A DNA stretch of 64,000 nt. Source: a virus (lineage: Duplodnaviria; Caudoviricetes). The notes under the pieces were generated by a model that was not told the origin of the DNA, ran no database searches, and was given only the letters and a program-made list of their open reading frames with translations. The stretch lies in IMG/VR virus record IMGVR_UViG_3300017585_000267, positions 32,001-96,000 of that record; one strand, written 5' to 3'. Below, piece by piece: positions 2,073-41,174 of this stretch (position 1 is its first letter; the number at the start of each line of letters is the position of its first letter). The position numbers and the translations under genes are program-made.

Positions 2073-3343
2073 GCGGTCGTCTTGAATATCATGTTGTGCG
2101 CGTCATACTCCGTGAAGAACGGGAAGTCATAGGGAATGGCCGGGGCGAGCTGGTTGGCAATGAAGTTGGTGAAGAGGTTGGTGATCACCGAGCCTATCAT
2201 GCAGGCCAGGTAGGTGGTCTGCTTCAGGGAGCACACGGTCTCGTCGGCCTCACCGTCTGAGAACAGGTAGTCCCTGTCATACCTCTCCATGCTGTAGTCG
2301 TCGTCACCGGCAATTGCGAACACCTGCAAGGTATCGATGCTCAGCCTTCCGTCTATATACAGGCACTTACGCCTTTCGTCAGGTGTCTTTCCCCGAAGGT
2401 GGTCCCTCCACTTGGCGAAGAACAGCTTCCTTGCGGACATGTTGTCGAAGCCGCAGATCATGATGTCGCTGGCCTCGTCAGTCTCCTGGAACTTTCGGTC
2501 TATCCCAAAGGCGTTGGTCATGTTGGTGTACTTCTTTATCATCTGCACCATGGCCGTCACCTTGGTCTTCCCCACGTCGTCCCTGCTGAACAGTTGCCCG
2601 GACATGTTGGAGGCTTCCACAATGTCGTCATCGTACAGGAACATGCCAGCGGGGGTCATCCTGGCAATCTGGAACACGGCGTTCGAGCCTATGCCCCCTA
2701 TGCCCGCCACTATGACCACGGACTTTCGGATGCTGTCATACCATTCGGCGCCTGAGAACCTCGACGTGGAGTCATCCAGGAGAAGGGTCGGGGAATTCGG
2801 GACTATCATGCCGGTGGAGTCGTAGGGTTCGCCCCTAGGCTGCTCGGCCCTCGACTCCTCCACGTGCTCGACCACCACGCTCAGTGGCGGCGTTACTGGG
2901 GAATCCTCTCCAAGATGCCTGTCATAGTCATCCCTTGGGGAATTCTCCACAATCCTGGTGACCCCCTCGGGAATCGGCGGTTCCTCTTCCGTCTCTCGGC
3001 CTTCCGTCTCAGCGAGGAGCTGGTCAACGCGTCTGACGATATCGTCCTCCAGGGCTTCGTCAGTCTCATGGGATTCCTCGGCAATGTTCTCCTGTTCCTC
3101 AGGGGGAACCATGGCCTGAGATTCATCGTTATCCACTGCCTGCTCAATCGCGACATATGTGGTATTTGGTCTATCCAGGGCCTCCCTTATGGCGTTCAGG
3201 TCAGTCGTTATCCTGAAAGGATATTCAGGTTCGTCCTGACGACGTTCCCCCTCGGGTTCGGCTGGGGTGAAGTCCATGGGATCCAAACCAGCCGAGGCGA
3301 GTATTTCATTCAGTTCTGTGTTGTCCATGTTCAATAGATCCAT
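2069..3343 (-). CDS. ThiF/E1-like adenylyltransferase with long acidic N-terminal extension
   Basis: SRF...VAGIGGIGS, YDDDIVEASNMSGQLF, DVGKTKV, CGFDNMSAR, YIDGR motifs; candidate catalytic Cys in ETVCSLKQT; start could be 3328. Confidence 0.9.
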   Translation of the reverse strand: MDLLNMDNTELNEILASAGLDPMDFTPAEPEGERRQDEPEYPFRITTDLNAIREALDRPNTTYVAIEQAVDNDESQAMVPPEEQENIAEESHETDEALEDDIVRRVDQLLAETEGRETEEEPPIPEGVTRIVENSPRDDYDRHLGEDSPVTPPLSVVVEHVEESRAEQPRGEPYDSTGMIVPNSPTLLLDDSTSRFSGAEWYDSIRKSVVIVAGIGGIGSNAVFQIARMTPAGMFLYDDDIVEASNMSGQLFSRDDVGKTKVTAMVQMIKKYTNMTNAFGIDRKFQETDEASDIMICGFDNMSARKLFFAKWRDHLRGKTPDERRKCLYIDGRLSIDTLQVFAIAGDDDYSMERYDRDYLFSDGEADETVCSLKQTTYLACMIGSVITNLFTNFIANQLAPAIPYDFPFFTEYDAHNMIFKTTA

Positions 3344-16875: not shown

Positions 16876-16920
16876 ATGGCAACAGTTGTCGTTTATGCCG
16901 TGACTATAAAAAATAAAAAA

Positions 16921-16965
16921 ATAAAAAACAAAAAACAAGGGGACACGGCAAGCCGCATCCCCCAG
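16921..16965 (-). terminator. intrinsic terminator
   Basis: GGGGATGCGGCTTGCCGTGTCCCC followed by TTGTTTTTT. Confidence 0.75.
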
Positions 16966-17046
16966 AAAGCGTCGACCAGTTTGTGGAAAACAAACAGGAC
17001 GTTTAAAATTTTTAAAGTTAAACAGTATTCACCGGCCGACGCCTTG

Positions 17047-17115
17047 AAGGGACGGCAGGGGTCGAACCTGCGTCTCCCGAAAACCGGGGCTCTCTCCCAA
17101 TTGAGCTACGTCCCT
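17047..17115 (-). ncRNA. tRNA-like RNA with truncated anticodon arm
   Basis: Perfect acceptor AGGGACG/CGTCCCT, D arm GCTC..GAGC, T arm GCAGG-TTCGACC-CCTGC; anticodon arm only CCCGGTTTTCGGG. Confidence 0.7.
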
Positions 17116-17122
17116 TGGCAGA

Positions 17123-17404
17123 CTATGCCTGCACTCGAACGATGTCCTCCTCACCGGGCCTCTCAAGCGTTACGAGCTGAGCCTTCGAGAGGTCAACCTT
17201 GTCCCCCACCCCAAGCTCGGAATCCCTGGAGAGCGGGATATAGGTCTGTCCGCCCGCCTTCATTATGAAGCATACGCTGTTCCCATACTGGGAAGCCACC
17301 ACTTCCGCGCTCTTCACCGAAGAGATCTCCTCGGCGTCAAATGACCGCAATGACTTCACGCTCCAGTTTCCGGCGTAGCTCTTGAGGGTCGAAAAGATGT
17401 TCAT
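17123..17404 (-). CDS. 93-aa conserved small protein, paralog 1 of 3
   Basis: MNIFS.LK.YA.W...VKSAEVVASQYG.SVCF.MKAGG..YIP shared with 21192 and 21747. Confidence 0.85.
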   Translation of the reverse strand: MNIFSTLKSYAGNWSVKSLRSFDAEEISSVKSAEVVASQYGNSVCFIMKAGGQTYIPLSRDSELGVGDKVDLSKAQLVTLERPGEEDIVRVQA

Positions 17405-17853
17405 AAGTTTCATCGCCAATGCCCTTTGGACTTGTTTTGGTACCTGGCTCACCTGTTGTTGTTGTTAAATGTAGTACTGAGGAATACTTCCGGCTGGCGC
17501 CGTACCCCAAATATCGGGGAAGTGTAATGGGCAGGTGTCGCTCTATGCGGCTCCCATAAATCCACGTTTCACTGGAATACAGTTCCCCGGGCCTTCCACA
17601 TGACGGCTGTATGGAACATAAAACGGCGGCCATGCCTCAAATGGAGTACTTCTTCGACAATGCCGACGTCCGTAAAGCCAATGACTGAATGGGCGCATTT
17701 TTCCTAAAAGGGAAGCACAAAAATGCCGGATGCGGGCCTGGGGTTCCCCATGAATGCCAGGGTACAGGCAGTAAAGTCGGGAAGAAATGGGTCGGGGGAA
17801 GGGATTATGGGGAAGAGCCGGGGATGAAGGGGATGGAAGACACTGTGAAACAA

Positions 17854-17887
17854 TTTGCAAGTTTAAAAAAAAGTGTTATATTTGCGG
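17854..17887 (+). promoter_or_regulatory. Bacteroidota sigmaA promoter firing into noncoding DNA
   Basis: TTTG (-33) and TATATTTG (-7, 17877-17884) followed by CGG. Confidence 0.7.
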
Positions 17888-17889
17888 TT

Positions 17890-18400
17890 GCCTTAGACTA
17901 CTAGTGAAAGTCTACACACCCCCCGAAGGTATGCGACACGACAAGTAAGGGGAGAAGGTGGCTGGTAAGGGAGGCAGATGTGACTGATACAGAATACGTT
18001 ACAGAAACAAGCTGCAAACATATCCCTGAGATATTGCTGCCAAGGGCAAAAAGGTTCTTTGATATAAGCATGGTCCGTTGCTGATGCACTCTAGAGACGC
18101 TGAGGGAAAAACGGGATCGAGATAAAGACCATTAGGTGTAATAACCCGCCCATGTGAAGTTCAAGGAATAAGCTGAAACCCAATGGGTTCAGAAAGGGAG
18201 ACGGTTCGTCCCCCTGGGTATACAGGTATCCTCTCTTCAGAGAGGTTCTTAAAAAACAATCTGAATCAACAAGCAACAGTTTCAACATTCTCCCCCGGTG
18301 ATAACACCTACCCAAGAAGAAGAGAGGATGAGCCGGGGGGCCTATTGTCATAACCCTGGTGAAACGTCCTTCAAGGTAGGTTTCAATCTCGAGACTAACT
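17890..18400 (+). ncRNA. putative ncRNA 1 (3' end uncertain)
   Basis: Downstream of a consensus promoter, no credible ORF; shares GGCTGGTA and AAACATATCCCTG with ncRNA 2. Confidence 0.35.
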
Positions 18401-18446
18401 CACTGATACTCAATAAATTATAACTACTATTAGTGATAGTTGAAAG

Positions 18447-18622
18447 TTAATATGGTACTTTCGGCTTAACGAATGTGCCATATTGCCATTTACTAATGTG
18501 GCATATTCCTTAAGGTGAATACCCCATGTAGGTTGTTTAAGCATTTTTCAATACCCCGACTCACGAATGTGCCATACTCGTCACGTCGACTTTGCCACTT
18601 AGGAGTTCACGAATATGGCACT
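18447..18622. repeat. iteron-like array, consensus GAATRTGSCAY, 23-bp spacing
   Basis: Copies start at 18449, 18472, 18495, 18518, 18566, 18589 and 18612. Confidence 0.75.
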
Positions 18623-18725
18623 TAAGTCGATGACGCCTAATTTTGGCCAAAATCATCCGATTTTTATCGACATAAAGGATTCACTTAGGAATTCCCCCTC
18701 CCCTGGATGGATTCCATGCCGCATA

Positions 18726-19338
18726 TACCTATTATATATAGGAGTCCCCGGGCAGGGACATCATACGGCTGGGGCGGGAGCCCAGGGTGGTGGCGAATAA
18801 TCCCCCCACAGGGTTTCGTCCTCCATGTCGCCCATACCTATTATATATATAGGCATGAAATTCCATCTACTCCTATTATATATATAGGAGTCCCGGTTAC
18901 GGCCAAACCCAAGCTACACCTATTATATATATAGGAGTCACAGGCCGGCCACTCCTATTATATATAGGTACAGGTCCCAGGTTATACCTATAATATATAT
19001 AGGTGCGGTGTCGTGGCTATACCTATAATATATATAGGAGTGTCGGCATCCATGTCCCGGTCCATATACTTATATTATATATATAGGAGTGGGACTGCCA
19101 CTACACCTATTATATATGGGGCCACAGCCCTGCCCACTCTTCATGGTCATGGAGTCCAGGCCATACCTATTATATATAGGGATTCCTGGCCAGGCGATAC
19201 ACCTATTATATATAGGAGTGCCGGGCTTCCCATACCTATAATATATATATAGGTATCCAGGCCATGGTCGAACCCGGACTACACCTATTATATATATAGG
19301 TGTGTCAGGTCGGCCATACCTATTATATATATAGGCAT
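18726..19338. repeat. array of 14 imperfect palindromes CCTAT(T/A)ATATA(TA)nGG with unique GC-rich spacers
   Basis: Cores at 18728, 18837, 18872, 18919, 18954, 18987, 19022, ~19069, 19106, 19166, 19202, 19235, 19284, 19319. Confidence 0.9.
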
Positions 19339-19379
19339 GGGACCATGCCGTCGCCTGTAGTGGAAAATCAAAAAAAGAC

Positions 19380-19413
19380 TTGCAGGATTGAAGAATCCTT
19401 CCTATATTTGCGG
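19380..19413 (+). promoter_or_regulatory. Bacteroidota sigmaA promoter firing into noncoding DNA
   Basis: TTGC...TATATTTG (19403-19410) followed by CGG, same as 17877. Confidence 0.7.
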
Positions 19414-19414
19414 C

Positions 19415-19750
19415 GACTCTGGGAGGAGCTGCATCCTCAGCCGTGCCGAGCCACCCCCTTACGGAAAGGGTCTAACAGGGCTGGTACAGACATCGGGTCG
19501 AGAATGGGAGCCGTCCCGATACGGAAACATATCCCTGCCTCGTAGCCAACTGCCCCGATACCAGAGAAACCGCAGGTTGCCATGACCCCAGCTCGACACC
19601 ATTGTGCAGCTTATGGAAAAATGGTGTCCACGAACAAACGTGGAGGCAATGCCAGAACCCCAGGCGGGAAACGCAACCGAGCAATGGCGATGAGACTTTG
19701 ACGAGGAGCCAGGGTCTCCAGGCAGGTTTCAGGCGATTTATTTTTTTTTC
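19415..19750 (+). ncRNA. putative ncRNA 2
   Basis: Promoter-led; hairpins ATCGGG/CCCGAT, GACACCAT/ATGGTGTC, CCACG/CGTGG; ends in a T run at ~19737-19749. Confidence 0.4.
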
Positions 19751-20664
19751 GACCTGAGCGTGCCAGGGGGCTCCTTTGCGAAAGAGAGTTCTATTCACTG
19801 ACGTTCATAGAAACTCTTGCCTTTCTTGATTCAGGAGCCCTTCCCCCTCACTCCAGCTCCACACTCCTGGGTACGCAGTTCATAAGTACACAGTTCAGTC
19901 AATCAGCCAATCAGTTGGTTGGTTCAGTTGAAGGAACCCAGGCTGTGGGGAATCAGGGTTCACACAACGGCTCTCCTGGGCAGGTGTGGCTGTGTCGACT
20001 CCCCGGGGGGAGGACCCCCCGGCCCCCCCCGGAAGCGAGTGTGGGTGAATAGACATCTTGTCCGCTACTTGGGTACTGCTGAGGTACTGGTTCGCTTGGA
20101 TGCACCACTTGAAGGGACCAAGGCTGTATGGTGGCGGGGTTCGCCCACTCCTTCCTCCCTGAGGACCCAAGGCTGAGGGCAGTCGCTTCCTGAGTGGACT
20201 CCTGGCTAAGGGTACTATGTTCACTTGGCCCTCTTGGGATGGTCCAGTGGACACCAACCAAGTGGCCACCCCTTGGAAGGGATGTCGCCTTAAGGAACCT
20301 CCTTTAAAGGGACTTCCGGTCATAAGGAAGTGATCCCATGAGGGCTTGGTTGGTTCTGTCCCTCCCCCGGTTAAGGCATATTCCCAGGTGCCACGCCCCT
20401 TGAGGGGACATCCTTAAGGAACTCCCTTGAATGAATCCTGAAGGGAGCCCTGTGAATGAAACCCCCAGGGAACCTCTTGAATGGACTTCACTTGAAGCAG
20501 GCCGCTTCATTCACTCCTTGAGGCCACTATGGGGACTGTCCTTTGGGAGCCTGCATTATTCCCCACCCCTGCCCCATGCCCCCTCCCTGTGAAGCAGTCT
20601 TTGCCGTCACGACCCTTGCAAGTCTGGCCGATGTTCACTAACTTTGTACAAAACCTAATGGCAC

Positions 20665-21096
20665 ATGCGAACTAAGGAAAGATTCTGCTTCATGTACCCA
20701 GACGGGATGTCGAGGCTCCTCAGGGGACGCCTGCTCGACCCGGCAGCCAAGGTCCTCCTGGGGCTCACGGGATACCTCGGGTACAACACCAACGTGGTGA
20801 AGCTCGACCCCATCAGGAGGACCTCGCTGGCTAACTCATGCAGGATACCCAGGACCGCTCTTGACGACGTGCTGGCCGCCCTTGTGGGGGAGGGGGTGCT
20901 GGGGATGCTGGATGGGGACACCTACGTCATGGACAAGTCCCTCTTCTGGAAGGGGGACCTCAACTCAAGGGACGCTCTGAAGATGAAGGACCTCGGGAGG
21001 ACCCTTGCAAGCTCACTCGAAGGAGCCTCCGTCCCGGTGGACCTTCCTGACACGGGAGGCTACTGGCAGCCGGATTCCTCGTTTGAACTCCGGTGA
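20665..21096 (+). CDS. RepL-like replication/maintenance winged-helix protein
   Basis: YNTNVV...L..LV.EGVL...YVM...FWKGD pattern; promoter TAACTTTG at 20639-20646. Confidence 0.7.
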   Translation: MRTKERFCFMYPDGMSRLLRGRLLDPAAKVLLGLTGYLGYNTNVVKLDPIRRTSLANSCRIPRTALDDVLAALVGEGVLGMLDGDTYVMDKSLFWKGDLNSRDALKMKDLGRTLASSLEGASVPVDLPDTGGYWQPDSSFELR

Positions 21097-21191
21097 AAAA
21101 AAATAAGGGAGCGACCCCATAAGGGGCCACTCCCACTGAAAGAAAAAAAACAAGGGACGCAGCCCGCATTGGACTGCATCCCCTGTACTTT

Positions 21192-21473
21192 TTAGGCCTC
21201 GACCCTCACGATGTCATCGCTGCCATCCCTGTGGAGGGTAATGAGCCTCGCCTTGGTGAGGTCCACGGAATCCCCTACGCCCAGGCTGCTCTGGTTGGAA
21301 AGCGGAATGTAGGTCTGCCCACCCGCCTTCATGAAGAAGCACACGGAGCTGCCGTACTGCGAGGCGACCACCTCCGCCGACTTGACGGCATTGATTTCCT
21401 CAGCCTCGAATGCACGGGATCCAGTCACGTTCCAGTTGCCAGCGTAGGTCCGCAAAGAAGAAAAGATGTTCAT
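21192..21473 (-). CDS. 93-aa conserved small protein, paralog 2 of 3
   Basis: High identity to 17123 and 21747; terminator at 21144-21186. Confidence 0.85.
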   Translation of the reverse strand: MNIFSSLRTYAGNWNVTGSRAFEAEEINAVKSAEVVASQYGSSVCFFMKAGGQTYIPLSNQSSLGVGDSVDLTKARLITLHRDGSDDIVRVEA

Positions 21474-21746
21474 GATGTTTGTGATTTAAGTTGTTAATGA
21501 TGAATGTTGACTACGGGAACCCTGTGTTCCCGCAAAAACCCGGGAAGTGTAATGGGGTGGGGGTTCCCTATGGGACGCCGCCTGTGGAATGCCTGCCGAC
21601 GGCGCTCCAACATGCAGACGTCGCTTCAGCCAGCCTTCCCTGTCCCACAAAAGGACGCCGCTCCCACTTGTCGTCGTTGCCGCCAGGCTTTAAAAAAATA
21701 AGGGGAAGAGGCCCGAAGGCCCCTCCCCCATTGCATTGAGACTGGC

Positions 21747-22028
21747 TTATGCCTCGACCCTCAGAATGTCCGCCTCCCCGTCCTTGGAGAGCACGACCAG
21801 CTTGGCCTTTGTGAGGTCTATGGACTGACCCACGGCTGCGGAGGCATCCCTGCTCATCGGTATGAACTTGGAGCCTCCCGCCTTCATCATGAAGCAGCAG
21901 GACGTCCCGTATTGGGACGCCACCACCTCGGCGGACTTCACTGCGTCTATCTCCTCTGCTGAGAAGCCCCTCGTTTCCTTTACGTTCCAGGATGCGGCAT
22001 AGGTCTTGAGTGAATTGAAGATGTTCAT
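21747..22028 (-). CDS. 93-aa conserved small protein, paralog 3 of 3
   Basis: High identity to the other two; terminator at 21692-21729. Confidence 0.85.
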   Translation of the reverse strand: MNIFNSLKTYAASWNVKETRGFSAEEIDAVKSAEVVASQYGTSCCFMMKAGGSKFIPMSRDASAAVGQSIDLTKAKLVVLSKDGEADILRVEA

Positions 22029-26574: not shown

Positions 26575-26676
26575 GACGCTAATATAGGAAAAAATCGCAA
26601 AACTAAGGTTGTCTGTTAAGCAGTTGCAAAACTTTTCCGTCTTTCCTATCTTTGCATGAAATAAGCGTATAAGGAT

Positions 26677-29088
26677 ATGGGATATGCAAACAAGGGCTTT
26701 CCTGCACAGCAGCTTCCCTTCAGGGAGAAGACCAAGAAGTGGAGGAAGGCCAACGTGGACTTCGCGGACTCGAGGAGCCTGCTGCACTACAACCTCACGA
26801 GGAAGTCCGTGTTCAACATGAAGATAAACTACGACCTCCTCAACGGCAAGCTGCACATGGAGGACCTGAAGCTGATGCTGAACCCCTACGGCACCGCCGC
26901 TTCCTACATACCCGACAACATACAGCACTATCCCGTGATGAACTCGAAGCTGCAAGTCCTCAGGGGCGAGGAGTCGAAGAGGGTGTTCGACTTCAGGGTG
27001 GTGGTGACCAACCCCAACGCCATCTCCGAGATTGAGGAGAACAAGAAGGAGGAGATGCTCGTGAGGCTCCGGCAGATGGTCGCGGACGACTCCGCTTCGG
27101 AGGATGAGTTCAACCGGAACCTCGAGAAGCTCGGGGACTACTTCACGTACGAATGGCAGGACATGAGGGAGGTGCGGGCGAACCAGCTCCTCAACCACTA
27201 CATCAGGGAGCTCGAGATCCCACAGCTGTTCAACGCCGGCTTCCTCGACGCCATGTGCGTCGGCGAGGAGGTCTACCAGTGCGACATAGTGGGGGGCGAG
27301 CCAGTGGTCGAGAGGCTCGACCCGATGAAGGTGAGGATACTGAGGTCGGGGTACTCGAACAGGATTGAGGACGCTGACATAATAATCATAGAGGACTACT
27401 GGTCGCCTGGACGGATAATAGACACATATTGGGACCAGCTCTCGAAGGAGGATCTCAGGAGCATCGAGGAGTCTCCCAATTTCCTTGGGGGTTCCTACAC
27501 CGACGACATGGGGAGCGTCGACCCGAGGTATGGCCTCGTGCACGGTGCCGTCCTTGGGGACACGGACGCGGAGCTCGACCCCCTGAGCCTCTTTGACGAT
27601 GACGTGGACTCCTCGCTTCTGCCATACGACCTTGAGGGGAACGTTCGCGTCCTGAAGGTCTACTGGAAGTCCCGCAGGAAGATAAAGAAGGTCAAGTCCT
27701 ACGACCCGGTGTCGGGGGAGGAGCAGTTCAACTTCTACCCCGAGACCTATGTGGCCGACGCAGACAAGGGCGAGGAGGAGGAGTCCTTCTGGATAAACGA
27801 GGCCTGGGAGGGCATCAAGATCGGCACCGACATCTACATCAGCATGAGGCCGAGGCCCGTACAGTACAACAGGCTCTCGAACCCCTCGCGCTGCCACTTC
27901 GGGATAGTGGGCTCCATCTACAACATAAACGGCGACAAGCCCTTCTCCCTCGTGGACATGATGAAGCCCTACGCCTACCTGTACGACGTGATACACGACA
28001 GGCTCAACAAGGTCCTCGCGAAGAACAAGGGGAAGATCCTGAGGCTGGACTTCGCGAAGGTTCCCAAGGGATGGGACGTCGACAAGTGGCTGTACTTCGT
28101 TGAGTCCAGCGGCATAGCCGTGGAGAACTCCTTCAAGGAGGGCGAGTATGGTGCGGCCACGGGCAAGATAGCCGGGGCCATGAACACGGCCTCCTCTGGG
28201 GTGATAGACGCGAGCCTGGGGACCGAGATAGTGCAGTACTGCAACCTCCTGGACTTCATAACCAACAAGATGGGCGACATGGCTGGCATCTCGAGGCAGA
28301 GGGAGGGGCAGATCTCGAACAGGGAGACGGTTGGCGGCGTCGAGAGGGCCACCTTGCAGAGCTCCCACATCACGGAATACCTGTTCTTCACCCATGAGTC
28401 CGTGAAGAAGAGGGTCCTCGAGTGCCTCCTCGAGACGGCCAAGATCGCCATGAAGGGCAAGGGCAAGCGCAAGTTCGAGTACATCACCACGGACGGGGCG
28501 GTGAAGCAGGCCGAGATTGAGGGGGACGAGTTCGCGGAGTGCGACTACGGCCTCGTGGTCGACAACGGCACCGCCACCCAGGAGCTCAACCAGAAGCTTG
28601 ACGTCCTCACGCAGGCCGCCGTCCAGAACCAGTATGACCTCTCGACCATCATCAAGCTGTACAACACCACCTCCGTCGCCGAGAGGGAGAGGATTCTCGA
28701 GAACGACGAGAAGAGGCGCAGGGAGGAGTCCCAGCAGCAGCAGCAGCAGCAGCTCCAGTTGCAGCAGCAGCAGCTACAGCAGCAGGCGCAGCTCGAGCAG
28801 GAGAGGCTTGACAGGGAGTACAAGATGCATCAGGAGAAGCTGGAGACCCAGGTGCTCGTGGCGAAGATCAACGCCCAGGCCGAGGCCGACAGGCTCGCGA
28901 TGATGAACATGGACAACCAGGTGACGTCTGACCAGCAGTACCAGCTCGAGAAAGACAAGCTGGCGCAGGACGTCAAGGAGTTCGACGCCAAGCTCAGGCA
29001 GGACGAGGCGTCCCTGGAGCTCAAGAAGAGGCAGCATGAGGACGACATGAGGATCAAGGAGAGGCAGCTGCGGCAGCAGGGCAAGTAG
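26677..29088 (+). CDS. portal protein
   Basis: 803 aa, crAss-type (P.QQLP...K...W, IQHYP, GISRQREGQI..RETVGGVER), Gln-rich coiled tail; promoter TATCTTTG at 26647-26654. Confidence 0.9.
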   Translation: MGYANKGFPAQQLPFREKTKKWRKANVDFADSRSLLHYNLTRKSVFNMKINYDLLNGKLHMEDLKLMLNPYGTAASYIPDNIQHYPVMNSKLQVLRGEESKRVFDFRVVVTNPNAISEIEENKKEEMLVRLRQMVADDSASEDEFNRNLEKLGDYFTYEWQDMREVRANQLLNHYIRELEIPQLFNAGFLDAMCVGEEVYQCDIVGGEPVVERLDPMKVRILRSGYSNRIEDADIIIIEDYWSPGRIIDTYWDQLSKEDLRSIEESPNFLGGSYTDDMGSVDPRYGLVHGAVLGDTDAELDPLSLFDDDVDSSLLPYDLEGNVRVLKVYWKSRRKIKKVKSYDPVSGEEQFNFYPETYVADADKGEEEESFWINEAWEGIKIGTDIYISMRPRPVQYNRLSNPSRCHFGIVGSIYNINGDKPFSLVDMMKPYAYLYDVIHDRLNKVLAKNKGKILRLDFAKVPKGWDVDKWLYFVESSGIAVENSFKEGEYGAATGKIAGAMNTASSGVIDASLGTEIVQYCNLLDFITNKMGDMAGISRQREGQISNRETVGGVERATLQSSHITEYLFFTHESVKKRVLECLLETAKIAMKGKGKRKFEYITTDGAVKQAEIEGDEFAECDYGLVVDNGTATQELNQKLDVLTQAAVQNQYDLSTIIKLYNTTSVAERERILENDEKRRREESQQQQQQQLQLQQQQLQQQAQLEQERLDREYKMHQEKLETQVLVAKINAQAEADRLAMMNMDNQVTSDQQYQLEKDKLAQDVKEFDAKLRQDEASLELKKRQHEDDMRIKERQLRQQGK

Positions 29089-35021: not shown

Positions 35022-38000
35022 ATGGAGAAGTTCAACAAGTGCCAGACCCCGCTTGAGGAGCTGAGGCTGGATACGTATCCCCAGGAGGTCCAGGAGCAGT
35101 TCTGGGACTTCCTCGACACGGTTCCCTTCATAAAGTGGATGGTGAGCCCTGACAGGCCGCTCATATCGGAGTGTCCAAGGGACGATGAGGGCAAGGTGAC
35201 GATAGACGTGACTAGGCCCCCGATCCTTGAGAACACCAAGTTCTTCAGGCAGGCGGCCATTGCGTTTGCCAACAACGGCAAGAGGTACTCAACCCTGAGG
35301 CCCAACGCCAATCCCAACAGCGACTTTGGCAGGTGGCTTCGTGAGGAGCGCCGGAGGGGGTGGGAGGGGCTAATAGACCCGTCCACCGGCATGTGGGTCA
35401 CCGGTGACATGTATTGGCTTCTCAACTACTGTCCCATACACCAGGTGGTGAAGGACAGCAAGGGGATGGCGCTTCGCGTAGTGAACTTCCCCAAGTTCTG
35501 GGACGGCCAGTTCCTGATGACCCACTACATGCACCAGGCGAGGCTTCACGGCCACCATGCCGCCGAACTGGCCAGCCGAGGGAAGGGCAAGGCGCACCCC
35601 TACAGCCAGGTCGTCTATACTCCTGATGGTATGAGGAGGTGGGGCGACATACAGGTCGGGGACCTCCTGTTCGGGGACGACGGCAAGCCGACGAGGGTGA
35701 CCATGGTTCCCTTTGACGAAGAGGAGGACATCTATACTGTCACCTTGTCTGACGGCAGATCCCTCAGTTGCACTTCAGGACACCTGTTCAGGGTAAGGGA
35801 CTGCCTGGAACACTCTTCGGAATGTGTGATTGACCTGTGGGAGATGATGCACTCAGGCTATACCTACGAGAGTCATGGCGGAACTACCGCCTATCGCTAC
35901 TCCTTGCCAAACAACGGTGCCGTGGAGTTCAGTCCACAATCAGTCCCCATAGACCCCTATTCTTTGGGGCTTCTCTTGGGGGGCGGTCTTTTCTCCATGA
36001 GTTCCACGAATACCGTGGAGTTCACTTCGGAGGAGGGGGACATTGACATATATCAGAAAAGCATACCCTACAGGATTGGTAGTGGGAAGACCCCTTGCAG
36101 CCATACTATGGAGATTCCTGGAATCAAGGGCTTCCTAAAGAAGCATGGCATGTATAGTGAGTTCCCCCAAAGGAGATTCATCCCAAGGGAGTACATGTTC
36201 AACTCCTCGGATGTACGGATGGAGGTGCTCAGGGGACTTATGGATACTTGCGGTATAGTGGACAATGAGGGTGCGCCTACATTTACTACCGCCTCATTGA
36301 GATTGGCGGATGATATAAGGTGGCTCTGCCATAGCCTTGGCTACAGCTCCCTTTTGCCTACAGGGCACCTCGAGTACGAGGGTGGCCCGCTCAGGGCCGG
36401 CTACACCGTTGCCATTCTCACCAATGACGCCATATTTCGGCTGCCTCGGAAACTGAAGGAGCTTGCAGGCTTTCCTTCTGTACATGGCCAGGACGGGAAG
36501 GACTGGACGAGCATAGTCGACATAAGGTACAGCCACAGGGAGAAGGCCAAGTGCGTCATAGTGAACAATGACAGCCACTGCTACCTCATAGGGGACTTCG
36601 TGGTCACCCACAACACCTCCCTCGGGGGAGGCATGCTCAGCCGCAGGTGCATACTGGGGGAATCCCATGACAACAGGAGCGACGTCCAGTGTTGGGTCAC
36701 GGCGACAGACCGGACGAAGTTGATGGGTGAGAACCAAATCCTCTCGATCTTCACCGACAACCTCGACTTCTGCGCGAAGAATACCCAGTTCGCAGGCCAC
36801 AGGCTAACTTCGTCAAGGCAGGAGATGCTCTGGAAGATGGGCTACAAGAAGCCAGGGAGCGACGTGGAGCATGGGTCGAAGAACTCCGTCCAGGGAATCA
36901 TAACAGGCGTGAACCAAGACAAGCTCAATGGCTCCAGGGGAGTCCTGTACCTCATTGAGGAGGCCGGCATCTTCAGGGACCTCCTGAGCATGTATACCCT
37001 CATACGCCCCTCTGTCGAGCAAGGCGATGACGTGTTCGGAGAGATAATCCTTTACGGAACCGCCGGTGACGAGCAGTCCGACTTCCAGGACTTCCAGGAG
37101 ATCATCTACAAGCCCAAGGGCTACAATGTCGAGTCTCTTCCCAATGTCTTTGACAAGGAGGGGCAGGGCAGCCAGGAGTGCGCGATATTCTACCCGGCCT
37201 ACCTGAACAGGGACGACGGCTGCATGGATGCCGACGGCAATTCCGACGTAACCAAGGCCCTGCTCGGGTTGCTGGCGGACAGGTACAGGGTGAAGTACAA
37301 CTCCTCCGACATAACCGCGATTGCCAAGCGCATCTCCCAGTACCCCATAACCCCCCAGGAGGCCATTCTCAGGTCCCATCATTCCATATTCCCGATAACG
37401 GAGCTCATCGAAAGGCTGAACCAGATAGACAACAACCCTTCCGAGTACGACGACGTGTACATCGGGGAGCTCCTGGAGGGAACCAGCGGCAAGATGGAGT
37501 TCATACCGACCAATGACATCCCGATAAGGGACTTCCCGACGAAGGACAACAAGGTGAAGGGCGCATTGGAGATCTTCGAGATGCCCCAGAAGGACGGGCA
37601 GGGCGACGTGTTCTCGGAGAGGTACCTGGCAAGCTGCGACCCTTACGACGATGACTCGTCTAACACAATGTCCTTGGGGTCCATCTTCGTCCTCGATTCC
37701 TGGACCGACAGGCTGGTGGCCGAGTACACCGGAAGGCCCGAATATGCCGACGATTTCTTTGAGATCGCCCGCAAGCTGTGCTTCTTCTACAATTGCCAGA
37801 TGATGTACGAGAACAACAAGAAGGGCCTCTTTGCGTACTTCAGCAAGAAGAACTGCGTCTACAAGCTGGCGGACACCCCTACGTACCTCAGGGACAAGCA
37901 GCTGATAAAGGAGATTGGGTACGGCAACAAGCTGAAGGGGATAGCGATGTACGGGAGTGACAAGCCAGGCACCTTGAGGAACTATGGCTATACCCTGATT

Positions 38001-38297
38001 AAGGAATGGTTGATACAGAAGGTATCCAAGGTAGAGAAGGATGACCAGGGCAATGACATCGAGACCTCCATCCCAAACCTGTACTTCATCAGGAACAGGG
38101 CCTTGCTCAGGGAGCTCATCCTCTGGAACCCCAACATCAACGTGGACCGCATCATGTCCCTCATGCAGCTCATGCTCTATCGCCAGGAAAAGGTGATACT
38201 CTATCAGGGTGACCTCAGCAAGCCCTCAACCAGGGACAGCTCACAGGACCTCGACAACGACGAGTTCTTCAAGAGGAACTATCCGAAGGGGTTCTGA
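35022..38297 (+). CDS. terL: terminase large subunit containing an intein
   Basis: Walker A SRGKGK|TS, Walker B LIEEAG, GTAG coupling motif, nuclease CDPYD. Confidence 0.93.
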   Translation: MEKFNKCQTPLEELRLDTYPQEVQEQFWDFLDTVPFIKWMVSPDRPLISECPRDDEGKVTIDVTRPPILENTKFFRQAAIAFANNGKRYSTLRPNANPNSDFGRWLREERRRGWEGLIDPSTGMWVTGDMYWLLNYCPIHQVVKDSKGMALRVVNFPKFWDGQFLMTHYMHQARLHGHHAAELASRGKGKAHPYSQVVYTPDGMRRWGDIQVGDLLFGDDGKPTRVTMVPFDEEEDIYTVTLSDGRSLSCTSGHLFRVRDCLEHSSECVIDLWEMMHSGYTYESHGGTTAYRYSLPNNGAVEFSPQSVPIDPYSLGLLLGGGLFSMSSTNTVEFTSEEGDIDIYQKSIPYRIGSGKTPCSHTMEIPGIKGFLKKHGMYSEFPQRRFIPREYMFNSSDVRMEVLRGLMDTCGIVDNEGAPTFTTASLRLADDIRWLCHSLGYSSLLPTGHLEYEGGPLRAGYTVAILTNDAIFRLPRKLKELAGFPSVHGQDGKDWTSIVDIRYSHREKAKCVIVNNDSHCYLIGDFVVTHNTSLGGGMLSRRCILGESHDNRSDVQCWVTATDRTKLMGENQILSIFTDNLDFCAKNTQFAGHRLTSSRQEMLWKMGYKKPGSDVEHGSKNSVQGIITGVNQDKLNGSRGVLYLIEEAGIFRDLLSMYTLIRPSVEQGDDVFGEIILYGTAGDEQSDFQDFQEIIYKPKGYNVESLPNVFDKEGQGSQECAIFYPAYLNRDDGCMDADGNSDVTKALLGLLADRYRVKYNSSDITAIAKRISQYPITPQEAILRSHHSIFPITELIERLNQIDNNPSEYDDVYIGELLEGTSGKMEFIPTNDIPIRDFPTKDNKVKGALEIFEMPQKDGQGDVFSERYLASCDPYDDDSSNTMSLGSIFVLDSWTDRLVAEYTGRPEYADDFFEIARKLCFFYNCQMMYENNKKGLFAYFSKKNCVYKLADTPTYLRDKQLIKEIGYGNKLKGIAMYGSDKPGTLRNYGYTLIKEWLIQKVSKVEKDDQGNDIETSIPNLYFIRNRALLRELILWNPNINVDRIMSLMQLMLYRQEKVILYQGDLSKPSTRDSSQDLDNDEFFKRNYPKGF
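35592..36614 (+). mobile_element. intein (341 aa, Ala1, class-3-like) with degenerate LAGLIDADG endonuclease
   Basis: Begins AHPYSQVVYTPDG, ends VVTHN|T, inserted within Walker A. Confidence 0.9.
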
Positions 38298-39662: not shown

Positions 39663-41174
39663 ATGGCCGGTAAATTAGGTAAATTTCAGACCCAGACTTT
39701 CAGTCACTGGAAAGGCTTGACCAAGGACAACCACCTTGGCAGCATCTATACTCTCTATCCCCAGAAGGCTACGAACCTCACGGTTCAGCTCCTCGCCTTC
39801 TACAGGGGCAAGACCCTGGACACCTTCCTCTCGAAGTTCCCCACGAAGGAATTTGAGTCGGGCGACGAGTACACATGGGATGTCGTAAGCAGCTCCTCGA
39901 GGAACATTCCCCTTGTGGAGGCCCGTACCATTGACGGTGCGGCCATCTCGGATGAGGTAGTCCTTGGTGCCAATGGCGAGCCGTTCTACCTCGTGTTTGG
40001 CGAGGACTGGTTCGCGGATCAGGAGGTGATTGTGGGTGAGCTCAACGAGGTCTATCCGCTGAGGATTCTTGGCGATGGCCGCAATGAGGGTACCAACACT
40101 GTATATAAGGTGGAGCTTATGGGAGGCATCACCTCTGGCATGCCCGTAGAGGAGCTTGCTGCTGGCAAGAGGTTCTCCGTTGAGTACGCCCCTGTGGAGC
40201 GTGAGCTGTCCAGGAAGGCCGGCGACGTTCGCTTCAGCTCCCCCGTGAGCATGAGGAATGAGTTCACGACGATCCGTATCCAGCACAAGGTCCCGGGATC
40301 CATGCTCAACAAGAAGCTCGCCGTGGGCATCCCCGTGACGAGGGAGACCAATGGCCGCTACGTGAAGGACACCGTGAACATGTGGATGCACAACGTTCAG
40401 TGGGAGCTCGAGAAGCAGTGGGCCGACTACAAGAACAACGTGCTCGCCTTTGGCCGCAGCAACCGCAACAAGAACGGCGAGTACCTCAACATCGGCAAGT
40501 CCGGTGAGGTCATCCGCATGGGCGCCGGCCTCTACGAGCAGATGGAGGTTGCCAATACGATGTATTACAACACGTTCTCCCTCAAACTTCTTGAGGAGGC
40601 CCTGTATCAGCTCTCCGCCGCCAAGCTCGACTTCGGCGAGAGGACCTTCATCATCAAGACCGGTGAGAGGGGTGCCATCCAGTTCCACAAGGAAGTCCTC
40701 AAGACCGTTAGCGGCTGGGTTGCCTTCCAGCTCAATGGCGACCAGCTGGGCATCATAAGGAAGACCCAGTCCCCGCTCAGTGAGAACGCTCTCTCGGCTG
40801 GCTTCCAGTTCGTGGAGTACCAGGCTCCCAATGGTGTCAAGGTGAAGATTGACGTGGATCCCTACTATGATGATCCCACCAGGAACAAGCTCCAGCATCC
40901 CAATGGTGGTCCTGCCTTCTCCTACAGGTATGACATCTTCGACATTGGTACGATGGATCAGCCGAACATCTTCAAGTGCGCCATCAAGGATCAGAATGGC
41001 GACTTCACTTCCTATGAGTGGGGTCTCCGCAACCCGTTCACTGGCCAGATGGGCAACCCGAACGCCAGCCATGACGAGGATTCCGCGACCATCCACAAGA
41101 TGACCACGACTGGTGTGTGCGTCCTTGATCCTACTAGGACGATGAGCCTCATCCCTGCAATTCTTCAGGGTTAG
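39663..41174 (+). CDS. major capsid protein (crAss HK97 fold)
   Basis: MAGKLGKFQ...HWKGLTKDNHLG...QLLAFYRGK N-terminus recognised as PhiCrAss001-type; 503 aa. Confidence 0.93.
   Translation: MAGKLGKFQTQTFSHWKGLTKDNHLGSIYTLYPQKATNLTVQLLAFYRGKTLDTFLSKFPTKEFESGDEYTWDVVSSSSRNIPLVEARTIDGAAISDEVVLGANGEPFYLVFGEDWFADQEVIVGELNEVYPLRILGDGRNEGTNTVYKVELMGGITSGMPVEELAAGKRFSVEYAPVERELSRKAGDVRFSSPVSMRNEFTTIRIQHKVPGSMLNKKLAVGIPVTRETNGRYVKDTVNMWMHNVQWELEKQWADYKNNVLAFGRSNRNKNGEYLNIGKSGEVIRMGAGLYEQMEVANTMYYNTFSLKLLEEALYQLSAAKLDFGERTFIIKTGERGAIQFHKEVLKTVSGWVAFQLNGDQLGIIRKTQSPLSENALSAGFQFVEYQAPNGVKVKIDVDPYYDDPTRNKLQHPNGGPAFSYRYDIFDIGTMDQPNIFKCAIKDQNGDFTSYEWGLRNPFTGQMGNPNASHDEDSATIHKMTTTGVCVLDPTRTMSLIPAILQG

Follow-up and report, generated by a model that had tools for sequence, protein, structure and literature searches.

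Among the phages of the human gut, the crAss-like phages are the most abundant, and they are common elsewhere too. In the temperate coliphages 186 and P2, face-to-face promoters with a short overlap (pR/pL and Pe/Pc, respectively) form switches between opposed gene arms. Here we describe a non-coding region at positions 17420–20650 of a 64,000-nucleotide stretch of DNA (hereafter, the window), which represents bases 32001–96000 of a single 105,238-bp virus record (IMGVR_UViG_3300017585_000267) from a crAss-like phage and carries two copies, A and B, of a module of predicted facing promoters. As in the 186 and P2 switches, the promoters face each other at the boundary of two gene arms, with an overlap of ~105–130 nt in the window. 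Unlike those switches, the module has no identified repressor or integrase gene near it, is duplicated, would give rise to rightward RNAs that are non-coding, and is known from sequence alone. The window is also similar to the RNA II/RNA I system of ColE1, in that a rightward non-coding RNA would start ~500 nt before an AT-rich core and an opposing promoter lies ~120 nt inside it; however, the window RNAs have neither defined stem-loops nor a short terminated antisense RNA, and in a related contig, L169, the promoter homologous to the leftward one apparently drives a gene block.

Two further systems bear comparison with the window. In prototypic crAssphage, replication origins were predicted beside repL at the junction of two gene arms (PMC10983915), and both this arrangement and the P1 lytic replicon resemble the present locus, where a repeat-bearing non-coding arm junction lies beside a small winged-helix gene. 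The differences are that the window gene falls below the Pfam threshold for RepL, that the region extends over 3.2 kb, compared with 465 bp before the RepL gene of the related contig L171, and that the origin is putative. The TAnnTTTG promoter and the intergenic non-coding setting are shared with Bacteroides intergenic small RNAs (sRNAs), such as GibS (PMC7366714). Whereas high-confidence sRNAs of Bacteroides terminate intrinsically (PMC7366714), neither an intrinsic terminator nor an Rfam match was found for the window transcripts.

A first-pass annotation, made from the sequence alone, had described copies A and B as promoter-driven, paralogous members of a new structured RNA family. Our results are better read as a duplicated DNA module of facing promoters. 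The -7 box of the consensus for the Bacteroidota primary sigma factor is TAnnTTTG (PMC7366714), and we required TTTG or TTG ~19–21 nt upstream of this box, using TTG, N18–21, TAnnTTTG as the strict promoter pattern. The strict pattern occurred 12 times in the 105-kb genome, compared with 1.9 ± 1.6 times in simulated sequence, and nearly all of the matches directly preceded a gene block and were correctly oriented toward it, as in the case of the portal gene, the tRNAs, and the winged-helix gene at 20665. The promoter core annotated at 17877 and 19403 was confirmed, and at both sites it forms part of a full Bacteroidota sigma-A promoter on the plus strand that matches the strict pattern: P_A (17854–17884) consists of TTTG, a 19-nt spacer, and TATATTTG at 17877, and P_B (19379–19410) of cTTG, a 20-nt spacer, and TATATTTG at 19403. 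An identical 11-mer is common to P_A (17877–17887) and P_B (19403–19413) and is found nowhere else in the genome. The two promoters also share TTGCA at -33 with three other central promoters, including that of the winged-helix gene, and P_A and the promoter preceding a Sigma70_r2 gene in L003 and L004, the two closest RNA-ligase relatives, have almost identical -7 regions. P_A and P_B are thus probable promoters, as judged from these matches.

The second half of each module lies on the opposite strand. The leftward promoter P'_A (18015–18044, minus strand), which consists of cTTG, an 18-nt spacer, and TATGTTTG (18022–18015), is itself one of the 12 strict matches; it faces P_A and contains the reverse complement of a 13-mer shared by the two copies (18016–18028 in copy A). 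Its counterpart in copy B, P'_B (19525–19568, minus strand), is degenerate, with a -7 box of TATGTTTC, TTGG 15 nt upstream, and the upstream word TATCGGGG. The CTGCC and TACCAG words, which had been annotated as parts of the RNAs, belong to the -33 and upstream portions of P'_A and P'_B. When IMG/VR was scanned for the leftward promoter, 10 matches were returned, all attributable to chance and none accompanied by either of the genes that flank the region, namely a 93-aa gene and the winged-helix gene.

The evidence for conservation of the facing arrangement comes from L169, a related 53.6-kb contig, which was reached because the 93-aa gene family is widespread in the subfamily and gave access to relatives of the junction. 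The 93-aa protein of L169 is 74% identical to that of the window, and at the corresponding junction L169 has 850 nt of non-coding DNA, in which two strict promoters (plus strand, 2531–2562; minus strand, 2697–2667) face each other ~105 nt apart. The plus-strand promoter of L169 aims at a small-gene block, like the minus-strand promoter in the window. Its -7 box and a 9-nt word of its spacer recur in module A, and its -7 region, TTGG, and an upstream 8-mer recur in module B. Given the aligned promoters, a chance origin of these position-specific matches is very unlikely by our own estimate. Since the opposite-strand promoter is conserved in L169, the 13-mer is best read as a DNA signal. The conserved unit is therefore a pair of facing promoters ~105–130 nt apart, present in the window in two copies of ~190–200 bp each (17854–18044 and 19379–19568).

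All of the motifs listed in the first-pass annotation were present where it had placed them. The 8-mer GGCTGGTA occurs at 17960 and 19479, the 13-mer occurs at 18016–18028 and 19525–19537 and at no other site in the 105-kb genome, and both copies have a C-run before these boxes and CTGCC after them. The two units are related, although not through all of the colinear boxes. In a colinear k-mer test, the 13-mer at its colinear offset had an expectation of 1.8e-4 and was reproduced in 0 of 3000 shuffles, whereas the 8-mer GGCTGGTA and the 7-mer CACCCCC were at chance level (expectations of ~0.15 and ~0.6, respectively). Likewise, the promoter stretches of A and B aligned with z-scores of 3.1–4.4 against dinucleotide shuffles, compared with just 1.6–2.8 for the transcribed parts in the same test. 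Above-chance similarity between the copies is limited to the promoter and the 13-mer. Two other possible uses of shared sequence were tried and rejected: the sole candidate antisense target of the 13-mer among the phage messenger RNAs was a site with 2 mismatches within the RNA-ligase gene, and an 18-nt inverted match (17405–17422 and 19681–19698) would yield like rather than complementary RNAs and does not stand out from chance pairs.

In both copies, the promoter is followed by one set of boxes in a fixed order and at similar distances. This recalls the nutL/nutR sites of lambda and the putL/putR sites of HK022, and the boxes could accordingly be RNA signals that make the polymerase resistant to termination. 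We consider this highly improbable, as the sole significant box is better explained as an opposite-strand promoter, no conserved hairpin accompanies the boxes, the phage has no NusG-like gene, and there is no obvious terminator to read through.

The same comparison bears on whether the second copy matters at all. A segmental duplication may have copied the promoter module, leaving copy B to decay and its transcript without a function of its own. The neighborhood is rich in duplications, including three paralogues of the 93-aa gene with leaders and terminators that recur; P'_B is degenerate, and the downstream similarity is weak. However, P_B is intact, being identical to P_A over 11 nt and having its -33 element in place, and the 13-mer is perfect while its surroundings have diverged to chance level, which argues for selection on the boxes. 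On balance, a neutral duplicate is rather unlikely.

The first-pass annotation had also found no credible open reading frame (ORF) after either promoter, and the coding analysis was in line with this. A 3-periodic Markov coding score trained on the long genes of the phage was negative in every frame across 17420–20650. The score per codon was ~+0.24 for the long genes and +0.11 to +0.24 for the small flanking genes, compared with −0.09 to −0.51, the range of shadow ORFs, for every ORF of at least 35 aa in 17453–20650; a 39-aa ORF at 19582–19701, within transcript B, scored −0.35. Among 120-nt windows in all frames across 17420–20650, none was positive enough for a gene, and reading TAG as glutamine or TGA as tryptophan opened no convincing frame in the region. 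A decayed Sigma70_r2 gene downstream of P_A, as found after the similar promoter in L003 and L004, was searched for using tblastn, and no trace was detected anywhere in the genome. The predicted transcripts, both on the plus strand and without a coding signal, are A (17890–18400), whose 3' end is tentative and for which no terminator was found, and B (19416–19750), which would reach a T-run at 19737–19749. Judging from promoter and coding signals, the rightward transcripts are probably real and non-coding.

Whether these transcripts are paralogues of a new structured, trans-acting RNA family, with protein-binding or regulatory members, was assessed by folding and homology. Near-identical promoters followed by colinear boxes, the non-coding nature of both transcribed regions, and a C-run followed by a G-rich stretch at ~+30 to +100 in both copies are compatible with such a family, and in each copy the G-rich stretch could pair with the CCCTG of the 13-mer to form a helix, leaving a loop of ~50 nt. 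The z-scores of the folding energy against dinucleotide shuffles (fold z), however, were at background: −1.03 for B and +0.22 for A as whole transcripts, 0.07–0.95 for 100-nt sliding windows over the shared first 150 nt, and on average −0.42 for windows over both RNAs, compared with −0.37 for coding controls. RNAalifold detected no common structure in the A and B pair (−9 kcal/mol over 179 columns). The hairpins that had been proposed for copy B are real, but their stability is no greater than that of shuffled sequence; the proposed CAGGG/CCCTG and CTGGTA/TACCAG pairings cross each other, and their partner words are missing from copy A. The terminal T-run of copy B is likewise present, but no G+C-rich terminator hairpin precedes it, and none follows transcript A.

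Homology searches gave a similar picture. At the gathering threshold of Rfam 15, only tRNAs passed in the window, and neither RNA was matched even at expectation values (E) of up to 10, where 16900–21300 gave only spurious microRNA-type matches on palindromes. No homologues of the region were found in phage records, in plasmid records, in three IMG/VR pattern scans, or in a metagenome pattern scan, and none by blastn or nhmmer in 164 loci of relatives (~2.6 Mb of related phage DNA). Neither A nor B had a folding energy below that of dinucleotide shuffles, as structured non-coding RNAs do, and of the two marks of a canonical intergenic sRNA, its own start and a Rho-independent terminator, the promoter was present and the terminator absent, so that the transcripts fall outside both classes. 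Together with the chance-level similarity outside the promoter and the 13-mer, and with the conserved opposite-strand promoter that explains the 13-mer, these results make a structured RNA family improbable. The claim of a paralogous pair of such RNAs fails to hold up, and nothing supports a new structured RNA family.

Under the reading of the modules as facing promoters, host RNA polymerase would start rightward at P_A and P_B and produce the non-coding transcripts, and rightward and leftward transcripts would overlap head-on by ~120 nt. The opposing directions would then interfere by collision, promoter occlusion, or antisense pairing. We put the chance that host polymerase fires from the facing promoters, with interference over ~120 nt, at about even. 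The rightward transcription would also enter the repeat-rich DNA downstream and could there contribute to the opening or priming of an origin.

The repeats lie mainly between and after the two modules. The most AT-rich stretch (18385–18515; AT content of 76% at 18400–18449) carries nested inverted repeats, including a palindrome of ~20 bp, with a fold z of −6.0 and a sliding-window z of −4.8, and is a candidate unwinding or operator core. Sites of the GTGCCATA type occur in both orientations across 18440–18630. An array of ~14 AT-rich palindromes follows at 18725–19340, each consisting of CCTAT, an AT core of 5–9 nt, and ATAGG, with unique G+C-rich spacers in between and centre-to-centre distances of mostly 33–36 or 47–49 nt; the (TA)n core varies in length, making a rigid dimer site less likely. 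A pair of adjacent palindromes was sought in IMG/VR and metagenome contigs by exact pattern matching, and none was found. Finally, six same-strand copies of an iteron-like 11-nt repeat, CTTGAAGGGAC, with at most 2 mismatches, occupy 19927–20486 on the plus strand together with two CCTTAAGG sites, and all three CCTTAAGG 8-mers of the 64-kb window (18508, 20288, and 20412) are inside the non-coding region. The palindrome array was also considered as a plasmid-type partition site, but the genome contained no ParB_N or CbiA/ParA match, and no Cas genes were present. A reading as a CRISPR-like element, retron, or diversity-generating retroelement was rejected, as the genome had no RVT_1 (reverse transcriptase) match.

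The gene arrangement around these repeats is that of an arm junction. A leftward arm of replication-type genes ends at 17413, and a rightward arm of portal and structural genes starts at 26677. Between them, a minus-strand gene of 93–96 aa (17123–17413) is followed by the 3.2 kb without coding signal, a plus-strand gene of 134–143 aa (20665–21096), two further copies of the 93-aa gene, and a block of small leftward genes. A second point of divergence was observed at 26598–26654, between the block of small leftward genes and the portal gene, where strict sigma-A matches stand back-to-back (plus strand at 26623 and minus strand at 26630).

The 134–143 aa gene is the winged-helix gene. It has a positive coding score and is preceded by a strict promoter match at 20615–20646 on the plus strand. 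The ten ESM Atlas clusters nearest to its protein, P0121 (starting at 20692), were all RepL (cosine of 0.96 and TM of 0.6–0.67), and its only two sequence relatives had sub-threshold matches to RepL, Phage_rep_O, and winged-helix families. The model of P0121 is built around a winged helix and matched solved structures only weakly; the protein may be RepL-like. A relative of its gene in L166 is followed by a convergent 93-aa gene (82% identical), and L171 has a true Pfam RepL gene at the same junction, with an upstream sigma-A promoter and ACTTAAG-type repeats (iterons) in 465 bp. Of the features expected of an iteron origin, clustered repeats and an AT-rich inverted-repeat core are present beside the winged-helix gene, and the identity of the initiator is putative. 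We infer that 17420–20650 is a probable replication and early-control region, a setting that is compatible with the role in replication that the first-pass annotation had suggested as a possibility for its RNAs, apart from their membership in a structured RNA family.

In this setting, transcript A could act as a primer or origin activator of the ColE1 or T4/T7 type, running ~500 nt into the AT-rich core, with a short leftward RNA from 18008 as its antisense regulator in the manner of RNA I and RNA II. The predicted start near 17890 is ~505–560 nt upstream of the most AT-rich stretch (18395–18450), the antisense promoter lies ~120 nt inside transcript A, the surroundings are origin-like, and a purine- and G-rich stretch at +51 to +100 has a GC skew of +0.69 in A and +0.31 in B. 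However, defined stem-loops and excess stability are absent, no terminator hairpin accompanies the minus-strand T-run at 17866–17873, and the L169 homologue of the leftward promoter seems to drive a small-gene block after a 420-nt leader rather than a short antisense RNA. The phage has no RNase H, and crAss-like phages bring their own replication machinery, a DnaB-like gene being present here. Priming of this type is hence a doubtful explanation.

Several observations weigh against a duplicated facing-promoter module beside an origin. P'_B fails the strict pattern, with a spacer of 15 nt and a change of the last G to C, so that the pair of pairs may be one working module and a decayed copy. 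The facing pair was found in one relative, L169, and not in DAC15, cr126_1, or crAss001 under the strict pattern. Promoter activity and transcript ends are predictions from the nucleotide sequence, and a short conserved RNA element may have gone unnoticed in a comparison of just two or three sequences. P0121 had no Pfam match at E of up to 10, and the RepL hidden Markov model (PF05732) found nothing in the genome. The region contains no DnaA boxes (one site with 1 mismatch at most), and the minimum of the cumulative GC skew lies near 26 kb, outside the non-coding region. The assignment as an origin is accordingly circumstantial.

The source genome is a Steigviridae-like, crAss-like phage. Its record has no end repeats and an estimated completeness of 100%. 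The capsid ORF (39663–41174) matched the Pfam Crassvirus capsid model at 1.5e-202 and is 70–73% identical to the capsids of crAss001 and cr85_1 (Steigviridae, Asinivirinae). The genome is unusually GC-rich for its group, with a G+C content of ~54% compared with 29–48% in relatives. The nearest portal relatives are 69–72% identical and the nearest RNA-ligase relatives 64–65% identical, and the only other contig carrying the locus, L165, is 100% identical. Across the data sets searched, neither a close relative of the phage nor a known host emerged. No array or gap comparable to the non-coding region was found in the relatives L005, L006, and L078.

Two side observations concern these genes and relatives. 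L005, whose portal is 71% identical, carries a tRNA at 3086–3158 with a CUA anticodon, labeled tRNA-Pyl by ARAGORN, which is probably an amber suppressor and hints at TAG recoding in L005; there was no sign of TAG recoding in the present phage. The gene for the large terminase subunit (TerL; 35022–38297, plus strand) has an in-frame insertion of ~337 aa (~35616–36626) relative to crAss001 TerL, and, given its weak Hint and LAGLIDADG matches, this insertion probably represents an intein that carries a homing endonuclease.

The 93-aa family that borders the region is represented by three minus-strand paralogues of 93–96 aa (17123–17413, 21192–21473, and 21747–22028), which are 62–73% identical and the first of which is the left boundary gene. 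The family is strongly conserved in Asinivirinae crAss-like phages, with 834 database matches. In the cultured phage DAC15, the 93-aa gene is the first gene of an exact terminal repeat of 1842 bp; by analogy with this position, the present phage may have its physical genome ends close to its 93-aa genes. Several further elements accompany the paralogues. An element of ~50 nt is shared by 17505–17554 and 21530–21579, upstream of two 93-aa genes, and contains the 15-mer GGGAAGTGTAATGGG, which has exactly two occurrences in the genome. Since it departs from the sigma-A pattern, the element may be a leader or represent another class of promoter. A minus-strand intrinsic terminator, consisting of a G+C-rich hairpin and TTATTTTTTT, is present in three copies downstream of 93-aa genes at 21097–21185 and 21692–21733, and two of the TTATTTTTTT terminators stand in tandem directly after the winged-helix gene. 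At the site where the other 93-aa copies carry a terminator, the first copy has a 69-nt tRNA-like element (17047–17115, minus strand), which scored 45.9 bits with the Rfam tRNA model and was not called by ARAGORN. Its acceptor, D, and T arms are normal, and its anticodon arm consists of a 4-bp stem and a 5-nt loop, so that usual decoding would be impossible.

At stake are the initiation of replication in crAss-like phages and the switch from one of their gene arms to the other. It is possible, if on the unlikely side, that the modules control a crAss-like replication origin, with the rightward RNAs opening or priming it and leftward transcription throttling it. If true, Crassvirales would gain its first described origin under RNA or transcriptional control, with a possible tie to a RepL-like initiator and plasmid-like persistence. 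The genome offers a large, well-marked non-coding control region for these questions, in which host-type promoters, a conserved facing module, three kinds of repeats, and a winged-helix neighbor provide concrete sites.

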